Shown: positions 1-19,705 of the stretch, in pieces
Numbering within the stretch: position 1 is the stretch's first letter
Layout of the letters: each line of letters begins with the position of its first letter
Program-made: the position numbers and the translations under genes
Assembly: GCA_017499595.2 (NCBI GenBank)
Contig: CM039003.1
Coordinates: 2,790,001 to 2,854,000, forward strand
Direction: 5' to 3'
DNA length: 64,000 nucleotides
From: Psilocybe cubensis
Lineage: Eukaryota
The notes under the pieces: generated by a model
The model's database searches: none
Told to the model about the DNA's origin: nothing
Seen by the model: only the letters and a program-made list of their open reading frames with translations

Positions 1-1757
1 CAATCACTCCGTAACTCGCCATCTCCCGTTCTGAATGCTTGATTTGTCGTCTCGGCAACTCGTCACTGTGGGGACACGTCAAACATAATGACAGTGAGCT
101 CAGAAATCAAGTTAGCATCGATTCGAGGATATAAACCTACGGTTCAACATAGAATTATTAGCCTTTCATTTTTGACTGTAGCCTTGACGTATGATACCGT
201 ACTTGACTACAAGAACTCGTACAGTAGTTCTGAGTCGAATTTTTTGACACAACTTGCGGCTATGCGCACTCGAGTAACAAACATATTATTACCTCATTAT
301 TGTACAATATCCTGGGTTTGCGCTCAAAAAACATAGTAAAACCTAGATACCAATGTAATACACATATGGAATCCTCCAAACAGTCCAACAGATATCGATG
401 AAAATGTGAATTCTCTAAAAATGGACATGTTTGCCTCAAGTCCCGCCTGACCCATTCGCTAGTTTATTCGCAAAAAAGCATTTCAGATAGACTCCGAGGA
501 CCCTATAGAGGTAATATATTGTTGGTTCAAACGCACCTGACAATAATACAGCGCCCCATTCATGCTGTGAGCCGAGATAAAAGTGGCACCACATACATCT
601 CCTCCTCCCCCAAATCACAAAATTACATGACTGCAAACGTTTGCTGCATCTACCCAGCATTCAAACGTTACATAAAGGTACCCGGGACATCCGAAGTCAA
701 GATGTAAAGAAGCTTGATGAACGTTAATTGAAGTTGAACATGTATCAAAGTGATACATCTGTTTTAGACGTACCTGGGCACTAAACGAACAAATCCGGGT
801 CCGCGTTGGAGATTCTGGATAAAATCAAGTTACAGTTTGGAAGGATATATGCAAGATAAGATAAATAAACTACTCACACAACATCCAAATGAAAATTGAG
901 ACTGACATTCGTTAAGCGCCCAAACCGTCTCCGAGACGGTAATCTCGTATATTTCATTCATAGCGACTCTATTTCCTATGAATTCAGTCAGAAAACGATA
1001 CATTGTGAAGGGGTACAGGCTATAGACATGATCTGCAGAGCTACAGCCTTGCTCCATGAATTTTGCAAAGAGGATGACGAGAACAAGGGGATGCCATGTC
1101 ATCCAGCCTTGTCCTCCAGCTCCAAATCCGCGTTTCTAGCGTAAAAAAACGACTTCCTTGCATCTCGGGCGAGCATCACGTCATGCTGTCATCGGTAGAC
1201 ACATGCCGTGAACGTTTGTACGAGATTGGCGGAGACATTTTGAATGCGAGAATTTGTTGAATTGAAGATACGAAGGGTTACATACCTTTCATTTCGCCTC
1301 GATTTTGAGCCTGAACGGCAAATAGACGTTGGATTGAGTGTTCAGGACGCCTTCCAAGTCCAATGTAGCAAAGAGAATGAGTCTAGTACAAGAATTCAAA
1401 ATTTTTTGAATACTCGCCATAATGATTTTCATTGTCCTCCAACTCGTATTTTTCCAAATTCACTGTAATTGCGCATGCATGTGAGCTTAGTATAGCACAT
1501 GGTAGTAATACTTACCCATTCTATCACGATTACAGCCCACAGACAAACGTTGGACTCGACAACGTACTCGAAATGCCAAGTAACCCAGGCTTCTCCTCCT
1601 GCCCCATTTCGCCGTTTCACGACATTCCAAACGCCGTCTCTTCTGGAACACATGTGAGTATCTCTACATCTCACCATATGCATCCGGATGACGTGAGTTG
1701 GAATGCTAGGTAGATGGTTAATTAGTAGACTCGAGATTGAAGGGGAATGAAGGCACA
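1..1757. repeat. Left part of segmental-repeat copy 0 (homologous to ~28790-30549 and ~45745-47504)
   Basis: 1-~1140 aligns with clear divergence to ~28790-29930. ~1150-1757 is nearly identical to ~29945-30549 (identical ORF-track peptides at 1244/30036/46991). Confidence 0.9.
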
Positions 1758-1772
1758 CATCAGCAATACCGG
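1758..1772 (+). repeat. Left terminal inverted repeat
   Basis: CATCAGCAATACCGG matches the reverse complement of 20004-20018 (CATCAGTAAATCCGG) at 12/15 positions. Confidence 0.8.
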
Positions 1773-1970
1773 GGCCAAGTAGGTAATGATCCGTAGTGAT
1801 ACGTAATTCTGTAGTGCCCATAGTAACGGTCCCATTTGGGTAACACACACTGATGTACCTGTAGCTTGGTACCAACGCTGTCATGGTATCTGTATTGTAA
1901 CGCGAGTGCTGTGTAGCGGCGTGTAGCATGCTTACCATCCATACCCCTCTGTATACAACTGACATACAAA

Positions 1971-2062
1971 TTGTAGCATACTACCACAGATTTGTAGCAT
2001 GCTACCACAGATTTGTAGCATGCTACCACAGATTTGTAGCATGCTACCACAGATTTGTAGCA
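1971..2062 (+). repeat. Subterminal 21-bp tandem repeat (TTGTAGCATGCTACCACAGAT, ~4.4 copies)
   Basis: Directly visible. Core GTAGCATGCTAC is palindromic. TGTAGC also occurs at ~1860, ~1913 and ~1922, and inverted ATGCTACA occurs at 19888 and 19956. Confidence 0.9.
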
Positions 2063-2330
2063 CATCATAACACACTGCAAATAGGTACAAAGGCATATAT
2101 AGTATCCACTTTCATTTGTATAGTGTTGTGTGGCTATTCCTGCAAGTGCCAATATCACACTGAAAACCGAACCATTTTTGACTAAAATGGGCAATTTTAA
2201 AAATAGATAATCTATGTTTGGATCGGACCAAACATGTTTCTATTAGTAGATGCATAACTATTAATACGTGACGATCTAAATATGGTATCTTCTAATCCAC
2301 ACCCGGCAGCTGCCCCGCTCATTCACCCAA

Positions 2331-5072
2331 CTACCCTTCTGGACCGTAATCTAGTTCCTCCTGTGGGATAGAATGGAGAGTCATCCTATAAGGGTTGGGG
2401 GGGTTCTTCGTAGGCCTCATAATAGCACTGATTATGGAGATCTAAATGATGCAAAGAAAGAAATGAATAAAAAAAGATACACACCATCCTTCCTCAGCCA
2501 CTTCCCTACATAAGCAAGCCAAGCGAGGACCTTGGTTCAAGGTATCCTTCTCTGCCTCTGCTGCAACCAACATGCAGGCATCATACCTCAGGGAGTACTC
2601 CTCTCCCTTGAATTCAATACCCGAACACGGACCACCTCTTGCAGGGTCAATCCCATCCCTCCACTCCTCAAGACAGTTGTGGATCTACAGCAAAATGCTT
2701 GTTAGCAAGGCAGTGCCAATAGCAGGAGAGAAATCAGAACTACACAACTGGCCACAAGCGCAAATGCTTTGTGGGGAAGCGATGTCTTGAAGAAATCCGT
2801 CTTTGTCTCCAGACCTTTGATGGGGACTGCAACCCCTTTTGTAGGATGGTAGAAGAAGTCCAGACAGATCTTCTTCACAAAAGGATGTCCAAATGGGACA
2901 TCGTGATACTGGAAACAAATCAATGAGTGGTAAGCCAGGTAAAATGGACGGCGAACTCACTCGGGTTTTGGCAACACCCCGGTGGTATTTACCATTGAGT
3001 AGCCAATATGCTACCCTGTCCTTGATGTATTCGATCTCCCCCATCTGATTTTCAAACATATTGGGGTTCGCGGCGATGACCTCCGACGGGACTTCGAGGC
3101 CATACGCATTTTTGACCAGGGGTCTGATCATCGTCTTCAGTCTTCCCCGGAAGGTTGACGCGTAGACAAATGCCTAATGAGAACAGACACGTTAGTACAA
3201 TATCCTTAAAAGAACACGCTAAAAATATACCGTTACGGCGGTATTCCTGTCTAGGAGCGTTTTTTTCTCTGCAAAGTTATGTAAACCAATTAACTAAAAT
3301 CACAGAAGACAGAACTTACTATCAGGCAACACTTTATCCGTGTTCATTCTTTCAAACACGGTTACTGCCATCTTCACACATCCATCGGCGACTAATAAGT
3401 GATTTTCCCGAGTGGGAAAGGGGACCTCCTCTACTACATACAGGCACATCAGTTTGCGTGCAATTTTGAGCACATCTTTCCAGTAACCAGTAAAGGATGC
3501 AACTGAATGCTTGGATACTTCCCTAGCAGAAGAAGTACTGGACTTCTTATGAGCGATGTGTGCCTCACCAAGCACCTCATCATCGTCAGATGCTTCGTTG
3601 TTCTCCCTTGTCAAACCTTGGGATACGGCTCCTTGCGAAACAGCCGCCTTGCGCAATGCCTCAGGGCGAGGTGGCTTGTTCGCCCGATTACGACGACGGT
3701 GTTCTTGAAGAACATCCTCTACTTCCACAACCTATATCAATAATACATTAGCTAGACATTAAATACAGCAGAGAAATGATTACATGGGGGGAAGGCTGGC
3801 GGAGCAATGCCCTTGCTCTCCTCTCCTCTTCATCATCGGAAACTTCATCAACCACTGTCAAACATAGGTGGTAAGCAAACACGACATAAAGGTGGAGTTA
3901 AACCAACGCTGGGCAGCAGGCTCTTCATCATCTTGACCCGCGTCGTCGTAACCTTCATCACCGTCGACATATTGGAGAGCTTCTTCATCCCCAATATTCT
4001 CTTCATCAATTCCTTGCATGCATTCGTCCCCTGATGCTTCCTCAGATCGCCTTTCACCGTCACTATCCCCCTCTTCCTCCTCCTCATCTTCCTCCTGCTC
4101 TATGCCTTCGTAATCTTGTTGCTCCTCCTCGTCTTGATGGCTGATGCTAGCCTCTTGGTGGGCGTTATAGGCTGCTGGATGCACTGGCTGTTGTACGGGG
4201 GCATGTTGTGTTACAGGATGCACTGGTTGTTGTACGGGGGCATCGTAGTATTGGACAGAATTCTCTGCCGCAGGGGCAGCGTAACGCTGAACAGGATTTG
4301 CTGCGTGTTGTACAGGGCGCGGGACAGGATGTGCTGCATGTTGTACGGGGCGCGGGACAGGATGTGCTGGCTGTTGTACCGGAGCAGCGGGGCGCTGGAT
4401 GGGGGCAGTGGGTCTTTGGACAGCATGATCAAGCTCTGAGTGCTCCTGATTTCTCTGAGCTGCACGTTGGATCTGGACAGGAGGGGGGGCACCCTGAGAT
4501 TGTCGTGGGCTTGGTTGGACTTGTTGGACATCCCAAGGAGCAACTGAAGGCGTTGGCCTTGGTTGCATTTGAATAGGGGGACCTACATGCGACACAACGG
4601 TAACCTAGACGTGCTTGGAAGATAGCAAATTTAAGATTAGAACAGTAGACTCACCCCATTGCGAGGTTTCTTCAAGGGAGGCGCCATCTCATTTTCAGGC
4701 ATGGCGCTAGTATCCACATTGGCGGCCCTTGACTTCCTCTTCCCAGCCTTCTCGAAGTCAATAAAAATGATGTTAGATGTTTTCTCCTGCCGAGCATTTA
4801 CTCCACCAAGACCACGGGTGCTTCGGATAGGACGGCCATTGTGGTCTTTTTAATAAGGAGTTCAGTGAATCTCAACAAAGAAAATGCTAGTACAGACCTG
4901 CTTCAGGAGCCTGAGGTGGCTCGTTTTCTGCCACGGAGCTCGGACCCTGTTCAACCTCTTGTCCTAGATGGATAAAACATTAAGTATGCGGATGTAATGA
5001 GGATATATAGATGATACCTTCAACCGTGGCATTGACAACCGCCTTTTTCTTTTTGGATCCTTTAGGTGGCAT
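2331..5072 (-). CDS. Multi-exon hypothetical protein: basic N-terminus, Pro/Gln-rich and acidic middle, DUF6532-like C-terminal domain
   Basis: Starts MPPKGSKKKK (ATG 5072). GT-AG splicing joins ORFs 3858-4595, 3300-3728, 2685-3131 and 2702-2923. The C-terminal PFGHPFVKKICLDFFY...FALVASC IHNCLEEWRDG...F...Y...Y pattern resembles TE-associated DUF6532. Stop TAG at 2331-2333. Confidence 0.7.
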
Positions 5073-5343
5073 ATTGGGCTGGTTTGACGGTTGTAATGCA
5101 GAAATAGAGACAAGGGGTGGTGAATTATGTCAAGCTACGATCCGGAGGTATGCGAAATTAGCCTCTTTTCAAAATTTAAGGCGACGGACATCAGTCAAAA
5201 ATATATCGTGCCATATAGAAATTACAGGTACTGAAACAGTACCCCTATCTACTACAATATATCACATATACATTATAGTCAGATTCCATGTCCTACTTAG
5301 AGTTAAGTAAAGTTACATCTCAGAGGGGAAAAGACTGCACCTA

Positions 5344-5699
5344 TCATGATCGCGGATTATCCTGAGGGTGCATTAGAATAGGTATTCCCCGACTAATGAG
5401 GGATACCCGTAGACGGGCGATTTCGAGCTGGGTTTCAAACAGAAGATCTTCATTGGATTTATATGCTCGCATAATGTCGTCCATATAACAACGTAGCTCT
5501 GCCTGAACTTCTAGACACCTCTGTTCAGTGAGTTGAAATTGGTCAAGAGCCTTTTTAACGGCCTCTATGCCTTGATTCTAGAGGAAGGTGGATTAAAACA
5601 TGAAAATAGACCTAAAACGAAGAACTCTGCCTCTTCGGGTATGCTAGGGAGGCGGCGACTTTGAGGTTGCGAAGCGTTGTTGCTATTGGAATGGTTCAT
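5344..5699 (-). CDS. Small putative coiled-coil protein (~100 aa, one intron, donor uncertain)
   Basis: MNHSNSNNASQPQSRRLPSIPEE, then a pyrimidine-rich TAG acceptor and an open helical exon NQGIEAVKKALDQFQLTEQRCLEVQAELRCYMDDIMRAYKSNEDLLFETQLEIARLRV...*. Confidence 0.45.
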
Positions 5700-5866
5700 G
5701 ATAAAGATAGGCAACAATTTGGTGTGGTGGTGGTGGCTTAAGTTCAAGACGATCAACACATTACGAACCATTAGCACTGTTGATTGCCGAAATACACTTA
5801 AATAGAATGACATAAAACCCGTATATGTCTACAAGTCCGTGTTCGAGATACAAGTAATGCTGCACC

Positions 5867-8226
5867 CTACATATTTACAACTTTGACACCACGGGACGGG
5901 GGGAAGATTTGAATCAAAGATGTTGTCGGAAAAGTTGGGAATGTATCACCGCGTTTCATACGAGTAACGGGATATTTATGTACAACGCAAATATCCTTGT
6001 CTATTGATCGTATCCTGAATATAATCCCCATTGAATCGCCCTCAAGCGGTGTAACGAAGTCGTCCTTTTTTACAGGATGAATTGGAAACAACACTGATTT
6101 CGGTAATGTCAGTGTACGTCCCAGTAATGCTAGGTGGGCAGTATCGTCGGTAAGGCTGAGAAGTTCCATCGCCACTTGATGGTCGCCCTTGGATTTGTCT
6201 ACGACTTTTAATCGTAATCCTTTCAGCTTATCGTATTTCGTATCTAGCCAGTGAGCGACGGTTGAGGGTAGTTCTGCGATTTCCACCGCCGAGTGTACAG
6301 GTATTGCTGAATACGGATTCCATGCAGGAGACAGAAAACTTGCTACTGTGGACGGCATTGGAGTTGCTCCACCAGAAGGCCCGGGGTCTTGAGCGGAATT
6401 TATATGTTCTCGGTTGCTTGAAACAATGTCAGTAAGCACCTGACAGTCAACGAATCAAGTGAAACCACATACTGTATAATTAAATGTGATATTTTAATAC
6501 GTTCCACCCTCTGGTTACGAGCTTCCAGCTCAACGTCTGCAAAGCCGTCGGGGGTAGTGCTTTTAACGATGCCATAGTACCCCTTGAATGTATTATTCCC
6601 GACAACGATGACACTCAAACCTATATAGACGTCGTTGTGGTCTCTTTCTCCAAGCTTTGACGAATGACGCTTTCGCGGGCGAAGAGTAGCATGGGCAGGG
6701 GGGACGTAGAATATGACTGTGTGGATGGGCACAATGACCTGAAAAATGTGTTGAACACTACTGAGACAAAGAGAATGACAGTTCACCTACTTCGCGTTCG
6801 TGCTCTGGGGCGATAATACAAACAGATCTTCCATCAAAGTCTGACACCCATCCATGGAGATCTTTGTGATCCCCTTCAACGACTTCAACACTATCGCCTA
6901 TCTGGAAAGCTGCACGTAGATCGTGTAGTGCAACTGCTTGTGTTATACCTTGGGAGGGGATGTGCACTTCCACCTCAGCGTCAGAAACACTCTTGACCGT
7001 TCCAAAAAGACCTAAGTATTCTCCACCAATAATTTTGACTCGATCATATCGTTTCAGTCGAGTCATGGAGATGGCTTTCGAGGCTTGCGCTAAGGTCTCC
7101 GTCGTTACAAATGGACACTCGCGAAATTGCTCCAACTCGGACGATGTTGGGAGGACATTGGAAAGATATTTGAGATCAATGGCGTCGAAATCCGTGATAA
7201 TAAATCCATCCTGGAATATCCTGTCGAGGTGCGATTTCTTGATGTTGTCCGGAGGTCTGGGGATAAGAACAACACTTTTCCGACCCTGGAATGTGAACAC
7301 AAGGCCGGTAGCATTTGCGTAGGTCGTCCAAGCCTTACGCTTTCCAGCAACCTTGACCCACGATTGGTCTTCAGGGCGTGAGGGTGGGGGATGAGATAGG
7401 ATCTCCATACATCTCTCCGAGGATAGCCTAACTAAATGTGTCGGATTAAGCTCTCTAACGAGGCAGGCTAACGTATGCGCATGTTGCATTGATGGTGCCT
7501 CGACGTAGATTCTCCCAGGAATTGAGGATTGAGCGAAGACAGACCGGGCAAGGATGATGGGAAATGTAGGGTTCGTTGACATCTGCATAATTTTGAAAGC
7601 GACGGCCTCTTCGCGTCCAACCTATCACTCGTAAGGTGATCAATAAATGCTGACTGAAGACTTATATTATTTTTGCGTACCTTGCAACCTATTTCATACA
7701 TGATATCAGTCGCGGAAGGCATATAATTATTATCACCAAGTCCTCCTGGTTGGGGATTGCCATATTTCTGTATAAGTTCTCGTGAACTAGATGGCTCTAT
7801 ATCATTGTCAGGATGAATTTTCATGCGTGAAGGCAGAAGCATGGGCAACAAATCGCTCCATTCATCAGCGTTATCTGTATTTTGCATGGCATGATATAGC
7901 CGAGAGTGTGCAACACGTTCCTCATCCTCAGAGTATTCATCGTTATCATTCACTGTATGTCAGAACCCATTAGCATCAGTACATATTGAGCAGAATATAT
8001 GTAAATTATTGGAACATACGTAGTTGGCCCCCTTCATAATCAAGCTCTTCCGAACTTTCATCATCATCGGAAACCGCTGCTTCAATGTCTATGAAGGGAT
8101 TAATGTCCTGATTTTTTGAGATCATAATTAAATTTCCCTGAAGTTAGTGATTAGATGGAGGGTTGGATTAGTACACACTGTGCGGTTGCCTAGGCTGTCA
8201 AGTCGTCTGCGTTTATAACTAGACAT
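5867..8226 (-). CDS. Spt5/NusG-like transcription elongation factor homologue (acidic N-terminus, NGN domain, KOW domains)
   Basis: Spliced model: MSSYKRRRLD...NPFIDIEAAVSDDDESSEE (Spt5 N-terminal motif); PSATDIMYEIGCKVGREEAV...SVFAQSSIPGRIYVEA (NGN); KOW motifs YDRVKIIGGEYLGLFGTV, GDSVEVVEGDHKDLHGWV and GLSVIVVGNNTFKGYYGIV; short TP/SP patch (GATPMP...SPAWNP). Confidence 0.8.
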
Positions 8227-8330
8227 TGTGGGTCTTAAAGACTGTTAATCGATGTTCATCTCACTTAATTTATCATCTTAACTTGTGATAATTTATTTTT
8301 AGATACTACACAACCTATTACTATGATAAG

Positions 8331-8597
8331 ACGCTATGATGAACGGAAAGAGAAAACATATGGTGAGAAACACGCTATTTCCGGAGCGATTCTTTAGGGT
8401 AGGTTTCCCGTCCTGAAGTCACGAGTTGGTTAAAAAAACGCCCCCTTACATCAGCCGCATCACCGTGATGCGGCTGATGTAAGGGGGCGTTTTTTTAACC
8501 AACTCGTGACTTCAGGACGGGAAACCTACCCTAAAGAATCGCTCCGGAAATAGCGTGTTTCCAACTTGATTGTTTTTCTTTCCGTTCGTCATAGCGT
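8331..8597. repeat. Long palindrome: perfect 97-bp arms (8367-8463 / 8465-8561), 1-nt spacer, imperfect outer arms
   Basis: gaaacacgctatttccgg...gcatcac c gtgatgc...ccggaaatagcgtgtttc. Outer arms acgctatgatgaacggaaag (8331) and ctttccgttcgtcatagcgt (ends 8597). Confidence 0.97.
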
Positions 8598-8737
8598 AGT
8601 ACCCCTCCCCATAGATTTAACATACATTCTAATAAAATAGACATAGACAATACTCTAGACACTCTATAATAGTTTTCGTTCAGTTAAAATTCATCTAGTT
8701 GAAAATTTGAGACACCAGAAAAAAACACACAAAAAAA

Positions 8738-11700
8738 AGTAAGTACACAAAGAAATAGAATGCAGGGTGAGACATTGAAGTTTTGTAGTGCAAGCCCAGA
8801 AGATTTCCCCCGTTGCCCGACTCCAAGCTGAAGAAATTCTGGCGTTTCCCTTCGAAACGCAGGTCGTTCGTCAGACTCTGGAAAACATGTTGCCAGAGTC
8901 GCACCCACTCCGCGTAGGTCTTAATTGGATTGCCATTTATGGTACTAATATCAAGTTTCTGTAGAGGATGGTGGATTTCCTCCGACGATATGAGGACTTC
9001 ACCTTTTTGAATTACGATGTTTCATCATCGAGCATGCGAGCGGCCATCAAGTATAGGCAAAGCTTGGCTGCCCTTCAGAACAGCATCGTAGAGACACCCT
9101 GCGTAACCTCGGCTACATGGGAGCAGGCGGGTAGCTTATTTGCAGCATACCGTCTACTCGATCTCGTAGCGTTGTGGCCAGCAGCCTTTGGACCATCGTT
9201 GCCGGTGACCGTGCCCCTGAATGAAATACAGGCCAGCACAGGAACTAAGGAAATATTTTCACGGTTCAAGGTATGCGATCATGAAGTCACTCAATGTTAA
9301 TTCTTAATTTTCAAACAATTATTGTAGCTTGTAGATGACTTGAAGGACTGGCCGGCAATGCTCTGCTCTGCCAGGAAGCGCATCCTCAGAGCCGACTCTA
9401 AGTCGCACAGAAACATCAACACCCCTTCTATCAGTGACACGCCGTCATCCGCTTTCACCCAGGGCGGGCCCTCGGAATCAACGCTATTACTCTGTCTGGC
9501 GCGTAACCACTTCAAGGGTGTTGTGGGGAAAATAATCGGGAATGTGTACTGCGCCTCGCTACACTACCAAATCTTGTCAGGAATGCGCGGTATGAAGGAC
9601 GATGAACACATTCTACCAGACATTCCAACGGACACGGCTACTCTTGCAAATCTCTAGTAAGTTTTCTTTCCTCTATTCATTGATACAATCTGCTCAACAT
9701 ACCCTAGTGCAAGCGGCCATCCTGATGCTGCGTTGTTCCTCTCAGAGGTCACGCCATCTCATTTAAAAATTCCTCTGCATGTCGCCCTTTTCATATCCCC
9801 CATCCTTCTTTTTGTGAATAAATCTTGGTATTCTAAGAAATGTGACCGGGAGCAGCTGCTTAAAGTAGGTGTATCCACATCCTCCCAGTTTAACTTGGAT
9901 TAACGCACTCCTTTAGGCCTCAAAAGCGCTCGGTAATTGTCGCCCCCGTGTTCTGCGTGAAGTGGAGATGGAAATTTGGAAAATCATTGCAGCGCAAAAT
10001 TGCGACATCCAGTCAGCCTTATATAAACTTGTTATCTCAGACTGCTGGATGGAATGCGAGCGGGTAATTGCACAAGATCCCGCATTTCACTTTTTCATAT
10101 GTGTGTTCTACGTACTGTAACAAAATAACAATTTAAACTAATAATTGGCCAGCGTCAACGAGCAGCGCCGAGGTTACAGCAAATTCTAACCTAGCAAGGC
10201 GCAGCACTGAACCACACGGTAAGTTATAAGCAAAGTCTGCGTCAATTACATGATTTAAATCCGTTTAAAACAGCTCAACTTCAGACCGTTTCCCATCATG
10301 GTGAAAAAACCACCTGTGAAGGGTCCGACGCAGACGCGGAGGGTGACGATGATCACGAAGTGGACACGACGGAAATGGTCAGCATGGGTCAACGGGAGAA
10401 CGGGGACAATACGGTCCCTACCTCAAATATACAGCCTCCGGAAGACACGTCTTCAGTGGCTGGCAAGGATGTCAGCATGGGTCAACAGGAGAACGGGGAC
10501 AATACGGTCCCTACCTCAGATATACAGCCTCCGGAAGACACATCTTCGGTGGCTGGCAAGGATGTGCCCACGGACGAGCAACCTGGTTTGCCGCGGAGTG
10601 ATGATATTGGATCTGGTCTACTTCAGACTGAGAATACTGGGCCCTCAACTGCAGGGGATTGTGAGATGAACGTCGATCCGGAGCAAGCTGATGTCGACCA
10701 TCAAATGGAGGATGGTCCACATACCAATGGTCCAGAAAATTTGGGAGACGGCGGGGCTGGACAAGGAGCTGAAGGGTCTTCTGACGAGGCAAATCGTATG
10801 TCGGAAGTTCACGAGGGCGAAAAGCAGGGGCAAGACGGAGAACGACCCGACGAGGAGAACCGAATGTCAGAAGATGGTGAGGAGGAAAGGCCAGACGACA
10901 GTTCGTCGGACAATGAGACCGAGAAGCAGGGGCAAGGGGATGTTCCACCAGTCCAGGAGGACAGAATGTCGGTCGATGGAGAGGGGGTAGGCCCAGAGCA
11001 AAACAATGATTCCTCAGACATGGAGAGGAATACATTGGAAGACAGCCAAGGCGAAAAGGAGGGGGAGAACGCACCTCCTGCTCCTCTTATTTTGAGGATT
11101 CCTCCTGTTTCCCAGATAAACAGGAGCAAAAACACCACGGCTGACTCCTCTCAGAAAGGGAAAGGGAAGGGCCGGCAGGGCCTTTCCAAGCGGCCTCCCA
11201 AACGCAAGCCGACGCAGGCTACCGACACATTTGATTCGGACGACGACCTGTGTATTGATGTCGATCTGTACGACAGCAACACTACCCTTGATGTCGTCAG
11301 CACTCCGGAGAAGGTGTATGGCACCAAAGTTTGGTCCACCTACAACGGTCGTGGCCAACTTAAAAGTTTCTGCGTTGTTGCCCATGTAAGTCATTCTCAA
11401 TATTGATTTTTTCGTCATTTATTTATTCTCCAAACAAGAGTCAAGCCGACGTGGATCGTGTTGAAAGGGTTCTGGAATTGGTCGAGAATGACTACGTCGA
11501 TGGAGTTCCATTGCACATAGCACGTCCCGAAGAATCATGTTTTGCGGTATTCGACCGCAGCACCACGAAATCCATGTATCTGATGGAGTCTTTCTCTGAA
11601 AGGAACGTCGTCCTTATGTCTCCTTCTCAAGAGGAGTCTATTTCAACTTGCTCCGACGAGTTCTACAGCCAGGTACGTCGCCATATGGGTGATATGACGA

Positions 11701-13450
11701 GCACCAGGTCAATCCAAGGTGTGTTTCCTCTTCGATGTTTTGATTTTTCTTTCTGCGTCTCATGCTAATGGCCGTAACAGATATGTCGACCATGTCGTCT
11801 AACCCCATCGAGAGGATTAAGCGTGGGTCCCTCTCTCAGGTCATGGAAGCAGCGAGGATGAAAGGCAAAAGAGGAAAGATCCTCAATGCCCTCGACATCC
11901 CTTTACCTCATGCAGGCGCTCACTCTTTTGACTTGAGTACTGAGGCGGCTGCTCTTCGGGCTACATCTGGTAGCTGGAAGTATAGTACCCCCGTCCCATT
12001 TGGTGATATGTCGTGGGGACTCGTAGCTACAGAGGGGGCATTTTCAGATATCCATATCGATGCCAATGGTTTCTGTTCCTTCATCCAACCTCTTCATGGA
12101 CTGAAGCTGTGGATTATCATGTATCCCAGACGGTTGGATGTTGACCTTTCTTCTGACCGCCGTGTATTTCTGGGAGACAAGCTGGATTACGGGGAAACGC
12201 ACCACCAAGACTGGATTTACGAGGCGATTGTTCTCGATAACCAGTCAGAACTGTATGTGATTTTTGAATGTCCTACCCATTTGATTATATTGACGCTACT
12301 TTGAAAAACAGCTTCATGAGACCGAATACTCTACATATGGCGTATTCTATCTCCTCAGTGGTTTGCCGTGGCGGACATTTTTACTCCTCCACTTCCTTCG
12401 AAGAAACCCTGACAGGAATCATTCACTGTTTTACCGCTGGATACAGGGCAACGAATACGAATCATTCAACGTCCCGATTTTTCCTGCAGCAAACCATACA
12501 TTGGTTCTACAAGGTTTTGGTTGAAGGTGACAGCGACCCAGAAGGTATGAGGTTTTTTACCGTTTCCTACAAGATATCTGATTCTTTTCTTCTATTTTCT
12601 CTCAGATTTTTATGAAATGTACCATGTCCCATTCTACAGTACGCAGTCCGGATACTCGAGCTTGATAGCTCTGTGCGTGTGCATGATCTTGGCAAATGCG
12701 CTCGACTACGAGACCTATCGAAATCCCGATCAGATGTTCTCCACCAAGACTTCGGCACAGTTAGACGCATGGATGCGGTGGGATACCAACAGCCTGAGCA
12801 ACGAAGAGCGCAAGGCGTGCATCTTTGCCCGTGGCGAAGCCTTGGCTATTCTAGAGTGGCTATGTCATCGCACGAAGTCCATCCACTACATGATTGAGAC
12901 GGACAAAAACAAGGATGCACAAAATATCATGGCGACAGAAAAGTTCCATGAAATGATACTTTGCCGCTATGCCCGTATGATTCTAGCCTACGACGCAGAA
13001 GCCAAACATAACAACATTGGTGGTGCCCCTTGCTGTACCGACACCAGTTTGCTTTTTGTCCAGCTTCAGGGCGTCTGCAGCGGAGAATTGAACAAGGTTA
13101 TATGTCGCAGTATCGACCAGCTTCCTCGTTCCTCGGTCCCAAAGATGCTCAAGTTACCCGTAATCACTCTCATTGACTGTGATGCCTGTGCGGATTCCTC
13201 AACGCAATTGAGTAGGTGGACCAGTGTCTGCCTTTGGATATTCACTAACCACGTCACAAACTAGGAACTCCCAAGGAGATTCTGGAACTTGGTACGAGTG
13301 TGAGGGATAAACTGTATCTGGATGGCATGAAAGTCAAGCTGGAGAGCACAAATCTGAGTACGTGTGTTCGATTATGCCTTTACGTCGCAAATGCTTATCT
13401 CTTCATCAGAATCAGAGTCTGTTCCGCCTTCTAAACGACGGCGACTTTGA
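8738..13450 (+). CDS. Large multi-exon JmjC-domain (2OG-Fe(II) dioxygenase) protein with acidic low-complexity middle
   Basis: GT-AG splicing gives one continuous frame through ORFs 8968, 9340, 10360, 11403, 11762, 12268 and 12617. JmjC motifs GAFSDIHIDANGF...GLKLWII (HxD) and FMRPNTLH...CRGGHFY (distal His). Ends in NLS-like PPSKRRRL*. The start codon appears split A|TG by intron 8739-8788. Confidence 0.75.
10378..10563 (+). repeat. 93-bp in-frame tandem duplication (31 aa x2) inside the JmjC gene
   Basis: VSMGQ(R/Q)ENGDNTVPTS(N/D)IQPPEDTSSVAGKD repeated at 10378-10470 and 10471-10563. Confidence 0.95.
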
Positions 13451-13921
13451 TATTGTACAACACATTGACACACATCTTGATTTACATACATGCCATGTTT
13501 TATTTAGTACTGAAAGGCGTGTATGTCCTGTAACATAATGACGATTGTTTTATTATCTGTAGTTGTGTGCTGCTCGTATCGCCAGACCAATACGCAAATT
13601 CTCGCTGGGATGAAAGCTTCTGGCTTTACTGTAACTGCTGTGCGTTTGAATTTATCATCAAGGTCAATGAAATCAACTAACTTACGTTTGTTGATGCTTC
13701 TTCCACCCACTTCAAAAAATGTGTTAGTGTCTTTGTTCTGGTGCGTATATACAGTAAAGCTCTTCCGAAGCCCTCCTTGGATTGTACTACGGATTGGTTG
13801 AATACTAACCCATGTGAAATTTGTTTGTATTAACGGAGACATAATCAGATAACATTTATAGACCCACTGCACGTTACTGAACATTACATTATCAGTTTTT
13901 TTTTCGTATCTTCGCTTTTGT

Positions 13922-16900
13922 ATGAGTCGTTGTTTCAACATGGGAAAGGGCAAGGGCAAGAGAACTCAGGAAATCTGTGTGCGTTGTCCTCGATGCAACA
14001 AGCCATTCGCTAAGCATGCAGATGTCCAAAATCACATCAATCAACCAAAATCGGCATGTCGTTTTCAATATGAGAACGTTATGCATTTTCAGTCCAATCG
14101 TTCAAGCTCTACATCTAGATCAGCAACCCCCGTATCTCGAGACCCTTCTCCCGAAATTGGTAATTTTATGGAAGTGGACTATATCGACAATTTTCTTGGC
14201 GCGTCATCAGAGATGGAAGATGACCCACCCCCCAAGGCATCAAAATACAACTATCCGTACGTGAAGGAGGATTATAACGGGGCTGGAAGAGCATTTGGAA
14301 CAGGCCTTACATTCATGGATCAGCTCAAACAGGATCAATTCGAACCCCAGCGGGCGGAAAATTTGTACTATCCTTTTGCCTCGAAAGATGAATGGGAGCT
14401 CTCCCTGTTCCTACTTCGCTCTGACATGAGCGTAGGAATGCTGAATGATTTTTTGAAACTTGAACTGGTAATTGAGCGTACATTCCCATCATTATTTATT
14501 TCAGCTGAGTCGATCCCGTATAGATAAAAAAACTCAACTTGTCCTACAAGTCGGCAAAAGATCTACGCAACCGGGCAGAGATCCTTCCCTCTGGTCCGCA
14601 GTGGAAGAGTCAAACGATCATACCAGAAATACCAAGCAAAAATCAGCTAACGCTTTTTTACCGCGATGGATTGGAATGTATCAAGGCGCTTCTCATCAGT
14701 CCCTTGCTCCAAGATAGCATGCACTTTAGCCCATTCAAGCTCTTCGACAAGTGCAACGAGATGATGCGGGTATACACTGAGTGGTTTAGCGGTGACATTG
14801 CGCATTTTATGCAGGTTAGTAGCAATGCCTTTGTCCAAGTTTGACGACAGTATAACAAGGTTCCCAAGGACCAGCTCCCAAAAGGAGCAACACTTGTACC
14901 TCCTATTATTTCCACGGATAAAACCAACATTTCCAACATGACCGGAGGCCGTGTCGCCTACCCTGGCCTTATCAGCATTGCCAACATAATGATGAACGTT
15001 AGAAACAAATCGTCAAATCATTTATTCCTTCTTTTTGTTCTTCTTCCCATACCAAAGTTTCTTCATCGCTCCAAAGCTGTGAATGGGATGATGGCAGCAC
15101 GGCTATATCACCAGTGCATGGACATTGCTCTAGAATCGGTCAAACAAACTGCGAGGGTGGGAACCACCATGGCAGATGCATTGGGGAATAATCGTTTCTG
15201 CTTTACACCGCTTGCTGCCCTTATCGTTGATACTCCAGAATCTGCTCTGGCGGCTTGCGTCGCAGGATCCACATCCTCTGTGACGTTGGCACAATACGAG
15301 ACGTTTGGGGATTCCTTTCGCCACCCTTCCCGAACTGCAGATCATACAATCAACACCATCATGGCCATCAACAATGTTAAGCCCCCTAATCATCTCGAAC
15401 CATATCTAAAAGAAAGCAAAAAGCACCGTCTCAATGGGGTTCACCTACCGTTTTGGAGAGATTGGCCCTTGTCTGATCCTTCTGCATTCCTTACGCCTGA
15501 ACCCCTTCATCACTGGCACAAGATGTTCTGGGATCATGATGCAAAATGGTGCATTGCTGCAGTCGGAGGTTCCGAATTGGATTTTCGATTTTCGATTTTA
15601 CAGCACCGCACTGGTTTCCGACACTTCAAGGAAGGGATTTCTTCCTTGAAACAAGTGACCGGTAGGGAACATCGGGACGTTCAGCGATGCATTGTTGCTC
15701 TCATTGCAGACACAGTCAGTACACCCTTTATCTTAGCCATCCGGTCTCTGATGGACTTTCGGTATCTCGCACAATCTCAAACAATCTCCGAGGCAATGTG
15801 TCTCAGAATTGAGCAGGCACTGCAAGATTTCCATGCCAATAAACAAGCCATCCTTGACGCGGGAGCACGTCGAGGTAAAAAAAACAACCCAATTGATAAT
15901 TTCTATATTCCAAAACTCGAGTTTTTGCAAAGTGTAGTACACGCAATTAGACTAAATGGATGTGCAATCCAATGGTCTGCAGACACGACAGAGCATGCAC
16001 ATATCGAGGTGGTCAAAGCCCCTTCCAGTTCCAGCAATAATCAAAGATACGAGCCTCAAGTTTGTCGATACCTTGATCGTCGTGACAAATTGCGCAATTT
16101 CGATTTGTTTACAGCTATACGAGAAATGAGGATCGATTTTCGGGCTATACACTCTGCAACAATTACGGATGAGGAGGAGCAGGAGGAGGGGGATGAGGGG
16201 GAGGAAAACGGCGAGGTTGTGATGGACACAACGTCAGAACTTCTTTCAACAATCATGCCGATGACAACCTTTCAATCAGCAAAGTCCAATCGCATTGTGG
16301 ATTACTTCTACAAAGCTAGTCTCTATGAGCGTGGCGTATTGGAAGGCCCAGTCCCCTACAGAACATTTTCTTGCAGCAAAAACGTTGTTGCCCATTTATC
16401 TAGGGATGCTAGTTCCAAAAGATTGCATATCGACGAGGTTGCGAGCATTTTTAAAATTCCCGACCTACGACCAGCAATTGCCGATTATGTGTCACTCATC
16501 AATAAGGAATCAAATCCGAGACACACCAATTCTCGAGGTTATCACATCAAGGGGATAACTGGCAGGCGTGTTTCTCCTCCCGGTTGTCCGTTGCCGTATT
16601 CAAAACTTGAGGTATGGCATAAGGTCCGTATACAGTCGACTGCGTACCAATACCCTCATGAGATCCTGGAGGCAGTCACACTTAATGCATATCCGCCATC
16701 TAACAAACATCCTTTTGGATACTTCGATTCAGCAATCATAAACGTGGATGAATCTGAGGAGTGGCCTCGCAGCGGGCTTCAAGGTAGTACTTCTTGGTGA
16801 CTTTTTTCCGAACCCCGTTGACCAGCCAATATTGTAGGCCATTCTGTCGTCGACATTCGTATTATTTTTCGCATTGTCGGAGAGACACCCAGTACTGTGT

Positions 16901-17226
16901 CTCCCGATATTACTGGAAGATTTCTCGCATACGTCCAACGTTTTGAGGTTTTAAATCAGCCACAGTCTCTAGGTTCTGCGATCCGTGGACCTTACCCAGA
17001 GCCAATAACCGGCATGTATAAATTAAAACGAAGTCAACGTACAGATAACACCATTATGGGTGGAATTTTACCATTGAATCAAATACGCTCCCTGGTTGAT
17101 CTGGTCCCTCAGATGGGCGAGAAGGCAAGGCGAAGCCTTACTACACATAACAGTCATTCCACTAGCACCGAGTTCCGATTAAACAAATATTTTGACAAAG
17201 AACTCTATTTGGCCCTGTCATCATAA
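13922..17226 (+). CDS. Plavaka-family transposase (N-terminal CxxC-H-C zinc finger, catalytic core, DUF6830-like C-terminus), 3 introns
   Basis: Motifs CPRCNKPF...H...C, YYPFASKDEWEL, LFYRDGLECIKALL, RVYTEWFSGD, PPIISTDKT (catalytic D), VDTPE, EPLHHWHK, IPKLEFLQ and SADTTEHAHI (catalytic E). Exons join in frame. Confidence 0.88.
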
Positions 17227-17266
17227 CATATCCACCTCAGGAAACCCACAAAGTTTTCAATCCCTA

Positions 17267-17790
17267 ATGCACATTGCCACTCAAATTATCACCCAACACG
17301 CCGGCCTCGTTGTACACAAAGACGACTCGGATCAATATCAACAGCCGCTTCTCACCAGTCCCGCTTTCTCACACTGTATCATCGTCACCTACTGCATATC
17401 CCTCCATCCATCTCATCTCTGCAGAATCAAGTCGTTCTCGCTCATCTTCCGCTCACCACCGCCCAAACTCCAAAGGATTCTTCCCAGAGTGCCTCTTCCT
17501 CTAAACAAAAATTCGCCTCCAGTCTTGTCGGTCCGTCCTGTCCTCAATTAGCGCCCATCTTGCCGGAGATACTCACTTTATTTTTTCAATTCCATTGCAG
17601 ATTAAGCTGTCAGCACCTTATCTGAGATCTGGCGCCCTCAAGACATTCCCTCCCTATTTCTACCCACTGAAGTCCTTTGAGGATTGAGGACATCTGGAAA
17701 CATACTGCAGACAGCACTATGTTATCTCGAAGCCATTCGTCCCAAGGTTCCCAAAATTTGCAAGAGGAAAGCATTGGCCTCTCTCCCACA
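17267..17790 (+). pseudogene. Degenerate, internally deleted upstream duplicate of the cyclin gene
   Basis: ~17390-17660 is a diverged direct repeat of ~17820-18100. 17684-17780 encodes the cyclin-box fragment NILQTALCYLEAIRPKVPKI. It contains a stop (TGA ~17622) and frameshifts. Confidence 0.7.
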
Positions 17791-18910
17791 ATCCATACCT
17801 GCCATGCCTCTGTATCATTACCTACTGAATACCCCTCCATCCGTCTCATTTCTGCAGAATCAAGTCGTTCTCACTCATCTATTCCACCCACCACTGCGCA
17901 AATTCCAAAGGATTCTTCCCAGAGCGCCTCTTCTTCTAAACAAAAATTTTTTTCAAGGCTTGCCGGTCCGTCCTGTCCTCAATTAGCGCCCACCTTGCCA
18001 GAGATACTCACTTTATTTTTTAAATTCCATTGCAGATCAAGCTGTCAGCACCTTGTCCGAGATCTGGCACCCTCAGGATATTCCTTCCGTGTTCCTACCC
18101 CCCGCCAAAGTAGGGGGTAGCTCTTTTCCTCCTACTCATTCCCGTCCAACTTCCAAGCAGATCTCTTCCGATTTGCAATCCATAGCGTCTCATACACATC
18201 CAATACATCCACACAACAGTCATCCCTCCGTATCCGGCCATAACCCTTCCCCGACCCTCTTGCTTGCCTCGGGCACCAAATCCGATCAGATATTACCCCT
18301 CAAGTCTTTTGTTTATAAAGTCCTTCGCCACTCAAGGACATCTAAAAACGTACTGCAGATAGCACTATGTTATCTAGAATCCATTCGTCCCAAGGTCCCA
18401 CAGATTTTGCAAGAGGAAAACATTGGCATTCGCTCTTATGCTCAGCCCAAAAGCAGTATTCAGAAAGCTACCCCAGAAGAGCTGGCGATGGATGCTGAGC
18501 TTACTGCTCTTGAGAACTCCAGCAAGATCAACATCATCAATAATTTCATTGACAATTCTATGCAAACATTCCGTGTTGCCGATTCTGGTTCACAAGATCT
18601 GGCTGAATCGTGCATCTATCCACAAGACTCTCTGTCCAGCGTAGATGTGCAGGTCTCAACGGCTCCTCTTTCCACCACCCTTTCTTTGCCATCTCCCCTC
18701 CTGTGTCCCCGTAGAGCCTTTCTGGCATCCCTCATCCTGGCCTCCAAATTTTCACAAGAAAAGTGTTATTCTAACCGTGCTTGGGCAAGGTTATCTGGTC
18801 TCCCACCTCGTGAAATTGGTCGCTGCGAACGTGCCCTCGCACAAGCCTTGCAATGGCGACTCTGGGTCGGCAAATGCGCCTTTGGTGAGAGTGCTGCAAC
18901 TGCCACATAG
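17719..18910 (+). CDS. PCL/Pho80-family (Pcl5/Pas1-like) cyclin; start codon uncertain
   Basis: Cyclin box LPLKSFVYKVLRHSRTSKNVLQIALCYL...PSPLLCPRRAFLASLILASKFSQEKCYSNRAWARLSGLPPREIGRCERAL...LQWRLWV. Intron 17966-18035 gives KFFSRLADQAVSTLSEIWHPQDIP. Confidence 0.8.
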
Positions 18911-19154
18911 TCTCAATAAGTTTCAACTTTCACGACCGCGCCATGTAGTACGCATTCTCAATAATCACTCTTTTGCTTGCCACCACTACGCGCGCTCCTC
19001 CCGCATTCAGTTAGATAGGCATCTTCTTAGACTAGCCTAGAAAAATCTATAGAACTTTGTTTTACGTATACAGAACCCCTGAAGAATTTTTATACCCGCG
19101 AAGTTTGTTTTCAGCTTGAATTCCAACTACGACAAAGTGAGCGTATCACACACC

Positions 19155-19705
19155 ATGCAAATCATCAGCTATGAGGAAATTTTACGAATCGAAGCAGAAG
19201 TATTGGCCCCTACTTTCCCAGATCTAATACATCCTACAACTTTCCCAGAGGCCGCCTCACTTGCTTCTCAAAGACAGCAATACGACTTGGAAATGGCTCA
19301 GTTAGTTGAGCAGACCCAAAAAATGGTCCTTTTGACCGAGAACAGGCTGATACTGGCCATCCTGGCCCTTTTCAACGAAATTAACTGGACCACCCTGGAC
19401 CCAAGGTTACTATCGTTGGCTAAAGCCAAGATTACCGAGGGTGACCAGTGGCTCAAAGCACGAGCCGTGAGTTTTCTGTTTCTTCAAGTTTCAAGTTGAT
19501 ACTCTTGCTTAAGATAACTAGGAGGAGACACTTCGGGATGCAGACTCAGGCAGCCCCGAGCACATATTGACCCAAGGGATGTCCATTATAGCCAACGGCC
19601 AGATTCATATTCGAACGGTAGAGGTGAGTCACAGTGATAACTACTTTGTTTCTACACTTTCTTAGTAATGGGCAGGATCTCATACGAGAATGTCAGGATC
19701 ATTAA
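19155..19705 (+). CDS. Small alpha-helical hypothetical protein (~147 aa, 2 introns)
   Basis: MQIISYEEILRIEAEV...WLKARA|EETLRDADSG...IRTVE|DLIRECQDH*, with GTGAGT donors and in-frame AG acceptors. Confidence 0.6.

Follow-up and report, generated by a model that had tools for sequence, protein, structure and literature searches.

How does a transposon come to carry a long and perfect DNA palindrome between two of its own genes, and what keeps that palindrome intact when such sequences are normally short-lived? The question arises at one locus of Psilocybe cubensis, within a 64-kb stretch of contig CM039003.1 that was analysed as a whole (64,000 nucleotides; hereafter the window). A first-pass annotation had described a 195-bp perfect palindrome with 97-bp arms and a 1-nt spacer, from which decayed outer arms extend to 267 bp, and both descriptions were reproduced (Table 1). 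An inverted-repeat search recovered arms of 133 nt (8331-8463 and 8465-8597) that are 93% complementary around a 1-nt spacer, giving a total of 267 bp (8331-8597). The perfect core of 97 + 1 + 97 = 195 bp occupies 8367-8561, with the first mismatch at offset 98 from the central C at 8464. Nine mismatches lie at offsets 98-133, eight of them among the 15 positions at offsets 98-112, where a gapped alignment also places single-base indels, and one among the 21 positions at offsets 113-133. The sharp change from core to edge (0/97 versus 9/36 mismatches; Fisher p = 3.5e-6) is genuine in the statistical sense. Past offset 133 there is no inverted similarity (local score 15 versus a shuffle mean of 18.9), and the palindrome is the sole inverted repeat of at least 40 nt across the window. 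Its DNA fold reaches -157.2 kcal/mol versus -33.3 +/- 4.05 for shuffled sequences (z = -30.6), and 0 of 100 shuffles equalled it.

Table 1. Coordinates of the palindrome, its host element and the flanking genes; positions are those of the window.
Feature	Position	Strand	Basis or remark
Host element, PlavakaB-type DNA transposon, 18,261 bp	1758-20018	+	CATCAG...CTGATG termini, empty sites, transposase
TSD CA, left copy	1756-1757	.	Right copy 20019-20020; both junctions aligned with two empty sites
Spt5-like gene, exon 1 (MSSYKRRRLDSLGNRT)	8179-8226	-	tblastn with annotated paralogue P0001, 15/16 residues; NGN/KOW Pfam matches further down the gene
TATA-like CTAAAAATAAAT	8291-8302	-	Precedes the Spt5-like ATG, beyond the arms; read from the sequence, putative function
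Outer 21-nt inverted repeat ACGCTATGAyGAACGGAAAGA	8331-8351	.	Partner 8577-8597; 20/21 pair, sole mismatch at offset 124
Diverged 15-nt patch, left half (offsets 98-112)	8352-8366	.	Partner 8562-8576; mismatched 8/15
Left perfect arm, 97 nt	8367-8463	.	Without variants >=10% in run X16 reads
A7 tract, left arm	8432-8438	.	Mirror T7 at 8490-8496
Apex 31-mer CATCAG-CCG-CATCAC-C-GTGATG-CGG-CTGATG	8449-8479	.	TA flanks at 8447-8448 and 8480-8481; layout like a PlavakaB end pair
Centre base	8464	.	C in the window
Right perfect arm, 97 nt	8465-8561	.	Equals one 97-nt unitig in run X1 contigs
TATA-like TATAA within CTCTATAATAG	8665-8669	+	Precedes the plus-strand gene, beyond the arms; putative function
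Cupin/JmjC-like gene, first long ORF	8968-9300	+	ATG 8968 in frame with annotated exon of paralogue P0002
Plavaka transposase ORF	14938-16800	+	PF18759 E 6.1e-53, 180.6 bits versus cut-off 26.3; DUF6830 E 3.6e-45

The palindrome is real. Among the independent raw Illumina reads of run X16, 125 cover the centre base away from the read ends. The de Bruijn contigs of run X1 break as a perfect palindrome predicts, the left-flank contig stopping at 8396 and the right-flank contig beginning at 8532, while one 97-nt unitig equals 8465-8561 and a 61-nt unitig (8434-8494) crosses the centre. A contig of run X10 spans 8185-8468 with 0 differences; those of run X11 skip 8006-8861 and are uninformative on the palindrome. 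The concern that the structure might be an artefact of assembly is therefore rejected by the raw reads and contigs of independent short-read runs.

The palindrome belongs to the body of a PlavakaB transposon that is young and multi-copy. It sits 6,706 bp inside the element and occupies the central part of the spacer that separates two divergently oriented accessory genes. We defined the ends of the element from empty sites, a search of the window for longer CATCA-starting TIR pairs having given nothing useful. At two paralogous empty sites in the window (30548 and 47503) the homologues of the flanks are contiguous, reading GGCA-CA-TACATG. The termini, CATCAG at 1758 and CTGATG at 20013-20018, conform to the definition of PlavakaB in section 3.2.2 of PMC12730594, namely 5'-CATCA..TGATG-3' with a 2- or 3-bp TSD. 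Judged by its termini, TSD and transposase, the host is a PlavakaB element, and it shares all three with the PlavakaB described in that part of Kojima 2025 (PMC12730594). The text of that paper never mentions Spt5, JmjC or hairpin and uses the word stem "palindrom" once, and the left end of the host family is not among the starts listed from its Data S1.

The palindrome had been proposed as the core of a divergent promoter, centred 238 bp and 274 bp from the starts of an Spt5-like and a JmjC gene. The first distance was confirmed: the Spt5-like gene starts on the minus strand with an ATG at 8226, which is 238 bp away from the centre of the palindrome and 105 bp away from its edge, and the exon that this ATG opens agrees with the annotated paralogue. 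The second was not, as 8738 precedes a GTAAGT at 8739 and there is no start codon there. Candidate ATGs of the plus-strand gene are 8760 (296 bp from the centre), 8968 (504 bp) or positions further down, as in the annotated paralogues. The divergent starts are less than 1 kb apart, 534 bp from ATG 8226 to 8760 or 742 bp to 8968, the plus-strand start being uncertain. What stands of the promoter proposal is that the palindrome is centred in the spacer of two divergent genes, whereas the TATA-like boxes lie outside both arms; if regulatory, the palindrome would consequently act from upstream of the promoters instead of forming their core. Its position would fit a shared upstream element, given the 238 bp to the ATG, the flanking TATA-like boxes, the symmetric A7/T7 tracts and a GC content of 0.497 in the core versus 0.38 in the whole spacer, and from these features of the sequence we infer a possible role in shared control.

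Searches with the plus-strand gene returned nothing meaningful from Pfam at E up to 10 and nothing from PDB, and the JmjC label, which thus has no sequence support from either, survives as a language-model lead. At rank 8 of an Atlas feature search, after unnamed fungal clusters, came a JmjC/Cupin_8 cluster (score 0.92, 172 shared features), and an HxD motif is visible in the ORF at 11744-12304. Protein searches found only near-identical paralogues from Psilocybe cubensis: for the Spt5-like ORF, 0 in the search termed "longer" and 1 in that termed "near", and for the plus-strand gene 3. Among metagenomes, 70 sequences matched the pattern set for relatives of the Spt5-like ORF, 0 of which were confirmed, and the central 31-mer of the palindrome had 0 matches.

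In run X16 (1,631.7 M letters read) the depth is ~536 over the left flank and ~506 over the right. With the genome size taken from the 30-47 M letters of contigs obtained from 8 of the 9 best read sets, one copy corresponds to ~35-40x, so that read depth suggests of the order of 10-15 near-identical copies of the element. At least 99% alike are 3,875 of the 5,278 reads aligned to the region, and the main lineage shows almost no variation throughout the 1.5 kb aligned, which leaves no power to detect constraint. Equally, in a family this young neither the perfection of the palindrome nor its retention needs selection. Depth falls to 188-198 at the centre, ~36% of that of the flanks, and such a drop in Illumina depth is expected at palindromes. 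The same drop would also fit a situation in which part of the copies lack the palindromic form.

Across these copies the palindrome is a fragile, fast-changing site: its centre differs among copies, and a few have lost one arm. The centre base, C in the window, is G in 50 of 125 reads of run X16. In 18 of 159 reads of the same run, GTGACG is inserted behind 8464, which yields CATCACCGTGACGGTGATG, again a perfect palindrome; the chance of such a symmetric outcome for a random central 6-mer is estimated at 1/64. One joint skips 8305-8473 (8304 to 8474; 10 reads), and an opposite-strand joint, 8355/8464 (8 reads), reads the same as a loss of 8356-8463 with a G at the centre. The symmetry-keeping centre variants fit ongoing hairpin- or arm-templated change. 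The first-pass annotation had read the perfect core and decayed edges as a sign of arm-to-arm homogenisation or selection, and this reading holds in part. The step between core and edge is significant and the centre variants agree with it, but co-variation of the arms among copies was not seen, since none of the right-arm variants is mirrored on the left arm at >=10% in run X16.

Taken together, we tentatively favour the explanation that the palindrome is an inverted duplication borne by the element and re-perfected by hairpin-templated copying, which would constitute both a symmetric upstream region shared by the two genes and a fragile site. Fold-back or template-switch copying of the DNA upstream of the plus-strand gene would have generated a quasi-palindrome with arms of 133 nt, and its inner 97 bp would later have been re-perfected by the same hairpin-templated copying or by arm-to-arm copying. 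Template switching, as described in the sections of PMC10710096 that bear on hairpins, can produce perfect hairpin stems in one event, convert quasi-palindromes into perfect ones and invert hairpin loops. The source of the duplication was probably the right side. A minority lineage makes up ~13-27% of reads at 13 sites between 8541 and 8644, and 40 reads have a loose end just before 8529. This lineage has the outer part of the right arm and the right flank to 8776 in common with the main one, but no mirror variants on the left arm. Two loose-end consensus 30-mers, relating to this lineage and to a locus with a solo arm, are absent from the window, in which neither could be placed. As a result of the duplication, both genes would see the same A7/T7 tract, GC-rich block and CATCA motifs, in the same orientation and 30-70 bp upstream of their own TATA-like box. 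With identical sequence facing each gene, the two would be driven or silenced together.

The strongest competitor to re-perfection and shared control is a neutral passenger. A single inverted duplication, in the founding copy of a lineage that amplified recently, would since have hitch-hiked in a non-regulatory form, eroding through centre changes and one-arm deletions. We consider this possible, though rather unlikely. Its appeal lies in the youth of the family, in which perfection can be had without selection, in the presence of variants with the left arm deleted (the 10 and 8 reads above), in the position of both TATA-like boxes outside the arms and in the lack of visible co-variation between the two arms. 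However, a single duplication leaves the step between core and edge unexplained, since that step requires a second event or ongoing homogenisation. The nearly central placement of the palindrome between the two genes also speaks against a mere passenger, as does the observation, a single one, that the palindrome-bearing lineage is apparently the one that was amplified, the other being confined to its minority of the reads.

A different set of explanations starts from the apex. The first-pass annotation was right that the terminal hexamers of the element recur there: CATCAG at 8449 and CTGATG ending at 8479 match the ends at 1758 and 20013-20018, and the 31-mer carries CATCA..TGATG in the left-end/right-end orientation of the PlavakaB terminal motif. 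That these end-like hexamers arose by chance is unlikely; in shuffle tests, which were post hoc, at least two CATCA[GC] per arm had a chance of 0.0032 and a CATCAG within 20 nt of the centre one of 0.005. The origin by templated copying does not by itself account for them. The 31-mer could be a pair of internal pseudo-ends left by a nested PlavakaB-type element that has shrunk, or else an operator to which the element's transposase binds, ideas to which we give little weight. Besides the orientation and rarity of the motif and the TA on both sides of it, one observation points in this direction: a solo inner-arm copy elsewhere (a 3,450-nt contig of run X1, 8462-8542, 8 differences and 1 gap) stops exactly at the centre of symmetry and runs on into unrelated DNA, which has a CCGGGG block in common with the left end of the host. 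Nevertheless, the likeness between the apex and the host termini is over after 6-7 nt. The apex also lacks the AAA run that is present in the first 12 nt of 12 of the 13 PlavakaB consensus starts listed in Kojima's Data S1. The TA flanks are uninformative on a TSD, as TA is its own reverse complement. The two halves have near-equal depths and no well-supported loose ends occur at 8448/8480, so there is no sign of half-elements moving. Arrays of TGTAGC, the subterminal motif of the element, are absent from the palindrome, and the 8-mers shared number 2 versus 5.6 expected, both of which count further against pseudo-ends. On the same two results we rejected the idea that subterminal binding motifs of the element are clustered in the palindrome.

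Should the apex serve as an operator for the transposase, it would couple the expression of the accessory genes, or the assembly of the transpososome, to the level of transposase; we hold this version to be just as improbable. In a related and similarly speculative form, the palindrome would be a symmetric control module. A factor acting as a dimer, for which the transposase of the element itself would be the most attractive candidate, would bind the four CATCA motifs of the apex and switch both accessory genes on or off together, which is something of a long shot. If true, the element would sense the dose of its own transposase and hairpin-templated repair would keep the module perfect. Such an internal "pseudo-end operator" would be a regulatory device not known from eukaryotic cut-and-paste transposons.

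Slighter still are the prospects of the palindrome as a source of hairpin RNA, in which read-through transcription would give a perfect hairpin of ~97 bp, and RNAi fed by it would silence the promoter that the genes share. The strand does fold into a long perfect stem. All 11 Rfam matches with E up to 1 fall well short of their gathering scores (best 40.1 bits versus 90), so that the likeness is a sub-threshold one to generic, miRNA-precursor-like families. There is also a precedent in the Mu killer of maize, an inverted duplication of the MuDR promoter and 5' sequence that was proposed as a source of hairpin RNA in the portion of PMC3440606 concerned with it. Against this, the genes on either side of the palindrome are oriented outward, so no known promoter reads across it, and the amplification of the family argues against strong self-silencing.

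It is very unlikely that an independent miniature element landed in the spacer, as in the first-pass proposal of a possible dispersed, nested foldback MITE. A palindrome has long terminal inverted repeats by construction, and AG stands on both sides of this one (8329-8330 and 8598-8599), a possible 2-bp TSD that would be expected by chance in 1/16 of cases. Dispersal, however, should raise depth over the palindrome, where run X16 has a depth below and not above that of the flanks. Among the best 10 of 57 loose ends (13-48 reads), none falls at 8330/8331 or 8597/8598. The joint of an empty site, 8330 to 8598, was not seen, and the joints 8304 to 8474 and 8355/8464 ignore the borders of the palindrome. 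There is no second copy within the 64-kb window, and the outer ends are unlike those of PlavakaA or PlavakaB. A single ancient insertion of a MITE before the burst of the family is the form of this idea that remains. Finally, although long-read chimeras can create palindromes, a misassembly is scarcely credible here, as independent short reads and contigs of four runs agree with the palindrome wherever they cover it. A replication origin or a resolution site is no more credible, as nothing in an element with a DDE-type Plavaka transposase calls for either.

The locus has implications for palindromes in general and for this group of transposons in particular. Here a transposon has multiplied a long perfect palindrome to about ten or more copies, and it persists with a limited range of centre variants. 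This offers natural multi-copy material for studying how palindromes are made, corrected, inverted and lost in eukaryotic cells. The palindrome may also mark the place from which two unstudied genes are controlled, one encoding an Spt5 paralogue and the other a cupin/JmjC-like protein, which look like tools for influencing transcription or chromatin. If it co-regulates the pair, or binds transposase through its apex, it would represent a form of self-regulation new to the CACTA-related superfamily. A literature search found no paper joining Plavaka with a palindrome or with Spt5, and for the combination of perfect palindrome, bidirectional promoter and transposon the sole match was not about transposon promoters.

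Several known systems resemble this locus in part. Foldback elements and MITEs likewise consist of nearly nothing but inverted arms, whereas here no dispersed copies, convincing TSD or empty sites were seen. In MuDR, the promoters within the terminal inverted repeats form two inverted copies, one per gene; the repeats are the ends of the element, and the genes converge. The present locus likewise has two inverted copies of one sequence, but here the repeats abut internally and the genes diverge. The human PATRRs carry polymorphisms of centre and arms between alleles. As far as the pertinent parts of PMC1851657 describe them, PATRR11, PATRR17 and PATRR22 share with our locus a length of a few hundred base pairs, a near-zero spacer and a proneness to secondary structure. 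They are AT-rich single loci, whereas the palindrome described here is multi-copy, has a core GC content of ~50% and lies in the gene spacer of a transposon. Set against PATRR-like features, it has at least 100 bp of near-perfect palindrome, a spacer of 1 nt and polymorphism of centre and arms among copies, but it is not AT-rich. Mu killer, in the account given in that portion of PMC3440606, shares the inverted duplication of promoter-proximal transposon sequence; it forms a rearranged locus of its own, ~4 kb long, with transcription coming from a flanking gene, whereas here 267 bp lie within the copies of the element. The closest parallel to the proposed origin is the correction of quasi-palindromes by template switching (the Ripley model; Monttinen, Frilander and Loytynoja 2023, PMC10710096). 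The events in the relevant sections of that study are tens of bases long, whereas the perfect arms here measure 97 nt, are borne by a transposon and recur in multiple copies, the event itself being one that we infer. In both, nevertheless, a neighbouring sequence is copied in inverted form with perfect pairing, a sharp border separates it from imperfect outer pairing, and the loop of the hairpin is found inverted, here as the C or G at the centre.

The palindrome between the minus-strand Spt5-like gene and the plus-strand cupin/JmjC-like gene is an integral, multi-copy and structurally unstable part of a PlavakaB-type transposon. The first-pass annotation had described arms perfect over 97 bp, a 1-nt spacer and decayed edges reaching 267 bp, and the sequence bears this out (Table). 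Counted outward from the centre base C at 8464, the first non-complementary pair lies at offset 98, and mismatches are concentrated in the edges rather than the core (9/36, all within offsets 98-133, versus 0/97; Fisher p = 3.5e-6). Single-base indels are also present in the diverged patch in a gapped alignment, 20 of the outermost 21 positions pair, and no inverted similarity was detected past offset 133 (local score 15 versus a shuffle mean of 18.9). The palindrome is the sole inverted repeat of at least 40 nt in the 64-kb window, where the others among seven close-armed inverted pairs of at least 16 nt are at most 33 nt long and 72-76% complementary. Its predicted single-strand fold reaches -157.2 kcal/mol, compared with -33.3 +/- 4.05 for shuffles (z = -30.6).

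Table. Coordinates of the palindrome and of features in its host element.
Feature	Position	Strand	Description
Whole palindrome	8331-8463 and 8465-8597		Arms of 133 nt each, 93% complementary, 1-nt spacer; one inverted pair in the repeat search
Perfect core	8367-8561		97+1+97 bp
Diverged 15-nt patch	8352-8366 versus 8562-8576		Offsets 98-112; 8 of the 9 outer mismatches
Spt5-like exon 1	8226-8179	minus	MSSYKRRRLDSLGNRT; 15/16 residues identical to P0001, an annotated Psilocybe cubensis paralogue
TATA-like box	8291-8302	minus	Just outside the left arm
TATA-like box	8665	plus	Just outside the right arm
Tandem repeat in left subterminal region	1971-2062		4.4 units of 21 bp, TTGTAGCATGCTACCACAGAT; unit core GTAGCATGCTAC is a 12-bp palindrome
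Tandem repeat in minus-strand ORF 3858-4604	4291-4379		33 bp, 2.7 copies; encodes proline/histidine-rich …HPVPRPVQHAA…
Tandem duplication in plus-strand gene	10378-10565		93 bp, 2.0 copies, 95% identical, in an acidic low-complexity part

Sequencing runs confirm that the structure is real. Thirteen of 19 listed runs contain the 4-kb stretch wholly or partly, nine of them, from three studies, with 0.92-0.93 of the sampled words; none carries an RNA label. Four runs were aligned to 7700-9200. In X16, a raw Illumina run from a different study that carries the same species label, a total of 5,278 reads aligned (3,875 at least 99% alike), and 125 of them cover 8464 away from their ends. Contigs of run X1 break as expected of a de Bruijn graph over a perfect palindrome: on the left a 6,364-nt contig runs up to 8396, on the right a 1,893-nt contig begins with 8532, and of two short unitigs one, of 97 nt, is identical to 8465-8561 and the other, of 61 nt, spans 8434-8494. 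Run X10, under another organism label, includes a 284-nt contig equal to 8185-8468 with no difference, while contigs of X11 have nothing between 8006 and 8861. Given the X16 reads through the centre and the X1 and X10 contigs, an assembly artefact is therefore rejected. Summed X16 depth declines symmetrically from about 536 on the left flank and about 506 on the right to a minimum of 188-198 at the centre. From X16 1,631.7 M letters were read, and eight of the nine best-matching runs contain 30-47 M letters of contigs. If these contig letters are taken to equal the genome size, each copy should be covered about 35-40x, and on that assumption we estimate roughly 10-15 copies from the flank depth. 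Fifteen X16 molecules start at 8451 on one strand (neighbouring depth 74), which may reflect breakage or polymerase stalling close to the tip of the hairpin, or else an artefact of the library. At 7814, 8747 and 8774, X16 differs from the window in 526/539, 514/515 and 530/530 reads, as do the X1 contigs and, where they cover these sites, X10 and X11; these are either private changes of the window copy or assembly errors.

Homologues of 301-1757 and of 20019 onward directly adjoin at about 30548 and 47503, and 1758-20018 is therefore an insertion. Its junctions (GGCACA/CATCAG... and ...CTGATG/CATACATG), compared with the empty sites (GGCA-CA-TACATG), delimit an element of 18,261 bp with ends CATCAG...CTGATG and a CA duplication, and its ORF 14938-16800 matches the Plavaka transposase PF18759 (E 6.1e-53) and DUF6830. 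As PlavakaB is defined by 5'-CATCA..TGATG-3' termini and 2-3-bp TSDs in section 3.2.2 of Kojima 2025 (PMC12730594), the host element is PlavakaB by its termini, TSD and transposase. Both subterminal regions (1758-2100 and 19700-20018) carry scattered (C/T/G)TGTAGC(A) motifs, which probably serve to bind the transposase or one of the accessory proteins. The element sits in a large segmental repeat (20019-53000) with blocks of 9, 4 and 2 kb at 97-99% identity, spaced 16,955 and 10,557 bp, and the empty target site is preserved in two repeats.

Variation in X16 was read at the level of reads, whose variants are not assignable to single copies. The centre base 8464 is G instead of C in 50/125 reads, some without any other difference. 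For any read that does not extend beyond the perfect core, a placement with C on the other strand is available, so we reason that the G reads must be anchored in the asymmetric edges. The centre is present in both orientations among the copies. In 18/159 reads GTGACG is inserted after 8464, which makes the centre CATCACCGTGACGGTGATG; the palindrome stays perfect, each arm gains three bases and G stands in the middle; we estimate the chance that a random central 6-mer would keep the palindrome perfect at 1/64. The C and G forms can both be derived from the form longer by 6 nt through mirror-image 6-nt deletions between GTGA/TCAC repeats, or alternatively be interconverted by loop inversion. Under either route the centre changes are of the kind produced by hairpin-templated processes. 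Template switching has been documented as a source of perfect stems, of perfected quasi-palindromes and of inverted hairpin loops (PMC10710096). In two rare joints the left arm is lost: one skips 8305-8473 (10 reads), and the other connects 8355 with 8464 across opposite strands (8 reads), which cannot be told in sequence from a deletion of 8356-8463 that has G at the centre. A third joint, 8468/8503, again across opposite strands, has 3 reads. At a threshold of 10%, none of the right-arm variants in X16 was mirrored on the other arm, so the arm co-variation that was to be looked for did not appear at that level.

A minority lineage (about 13-27% of X16 reads) differs at 13 sites in 8541-8644, with loose ends before 8529 (40 reads) and behind 8776 (38 reads). 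The outer right arm and the right flank are common to this lineage and the window. Its variants are not mirrored on the left arm in X16, which suggests that the left arm was copied from the right. At 8529-8540 the arm motif CCCTAAAGA(AT) stands three times in tandem in this lineage and once in the window. A solo arm is found in a 3,450-nt X1 contig (depth 77 versus 550), which contains 8462-8542 with eight differences and one gap, and whose likeness stops exactly at the symmetry centre. The 30 letters adjoining it at this other locus share a CCGGGG block with the left end of the host element, and a PlavakaB-type end may start there.

The gene to the left carries Spt5 NGN and KOW domains. Agreement of its exon 1 with P0001 therefore places its ATG (8226) 238 bp from the centre, reproducing the distance first proposed, and 105 bp from the palindrome edge; ORF 3858-4604 may be its C-terminal part. 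The 274 bp proposed for the plus-strand start did not hold: it leads to 8738, where GTAAGT follows and no start codon stands. The first downstream ATG is 8760, an ORF whose ATG is at 8968 shares its reading frame with an exon of the paralogue P0002, and annotated paralogues begin at the equivalents of 9166 or 10375. The 5' leader of the plus-strand gene may contain an intron (8739-8964), bounded by GTAAGT at 8739, a consensus 5' splice site, and by a CTGTAG that ends at 8964, shortly upstream of ATG 8968. Pfam and PDB sequence searches gave no support for a JmjC identity, and in an Atlas feature search a JmjC/Cupin_8 cluster ranked eighth (score 0.92), which serves as a lead only. Both genes have protein matches labelled Psilocybe cubensis, with 99% identity across the 67-92% of the query that aligns. 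P0002 (1,973 aa; 9166-16533) combines the cupin/JmjC-like gene with the Plavaka transposase in one protein, which reflects either a genuine fusion transcript or an annotation that reads through; two other models, P0003 and P0004, end before the transposase.

We propose that the palindrome arose when DNA lying upstream of the plus-strand gene was copied in inverted orientation, that its inner 97 bp were later re-perfected, and that it may serve both genes as a shared symmetric upstream region. The two arms offer their respective genes an identical A7/T7 tract and an identical GC-rich block, with TATA-like boxes just outside the arms, and GC is 0.50 in the core against 0.38 in the spacer. Given the youth of the family, neither perfection nor retention proves selection, and a neutral passenger with no regulatory role, although doubtful in itself, is therefore nearly as likely as this best explanation. 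As an unlikely alternative, analogous to Mu killer (PMC3440606), the palindrome might be a source of hairpin RNA; no known promoter reads across it. The apex, TA-CATCAG-CCG-CATCAC-C-GTGATG-CGG-CTGATG-TA, does contain the hexamers of the host termini, as first noticed, in the layout of a 31-bp PlavakaB 'mini-element', and it seems improbable that these are real PlavakaB ends or a transposase site. Post hoc, two CATCA[GC] motifs per arm arose in 0.32% of 20,000 shuffles and a CATCAG no more than 20 nt away from the centre in 0.5%; however, likeness to the host ends ceases after 6-7 nt, the apex lacks the AAA run found in the first 12 nt of 12/13 PlavakaB consensus starts listed (Kojima Data S1), the subterminal TGTAGC arrays, including the 21-bp repeat, are absent from the palindrome, 2 shared 8-mers were counted versus 5.6 expected, and X16 depths of the left and right halves are nearly equal. 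A nested MITE, as a dispersed family, would predict surplus depth, loose ends and empty-site joints at 8330/8598, and X16 instead has minimal depth over the palindrome, no border loose ends among the best 10 of 57 (13-48 reads) and no such joint among those listed, which rules it out; a single extra standalone copy would be compatible with these data. A replication origin or resolution site found no support.

The literature search returned no link of Plavaka with a palindrome or with Spt5, and the text of Kojima 2025 contains no Spt5, JmjC or hairpin. The palindrome is real and unusual, and its function is testable though unproven. In its structure-prone behaviour it resembles the human PATRRs (PMC1851657), although these are AT-rich and the Psilocybe palindrome is not; in origin it resembles the template-switch hairpins of PMC10710096, but is several times longer.
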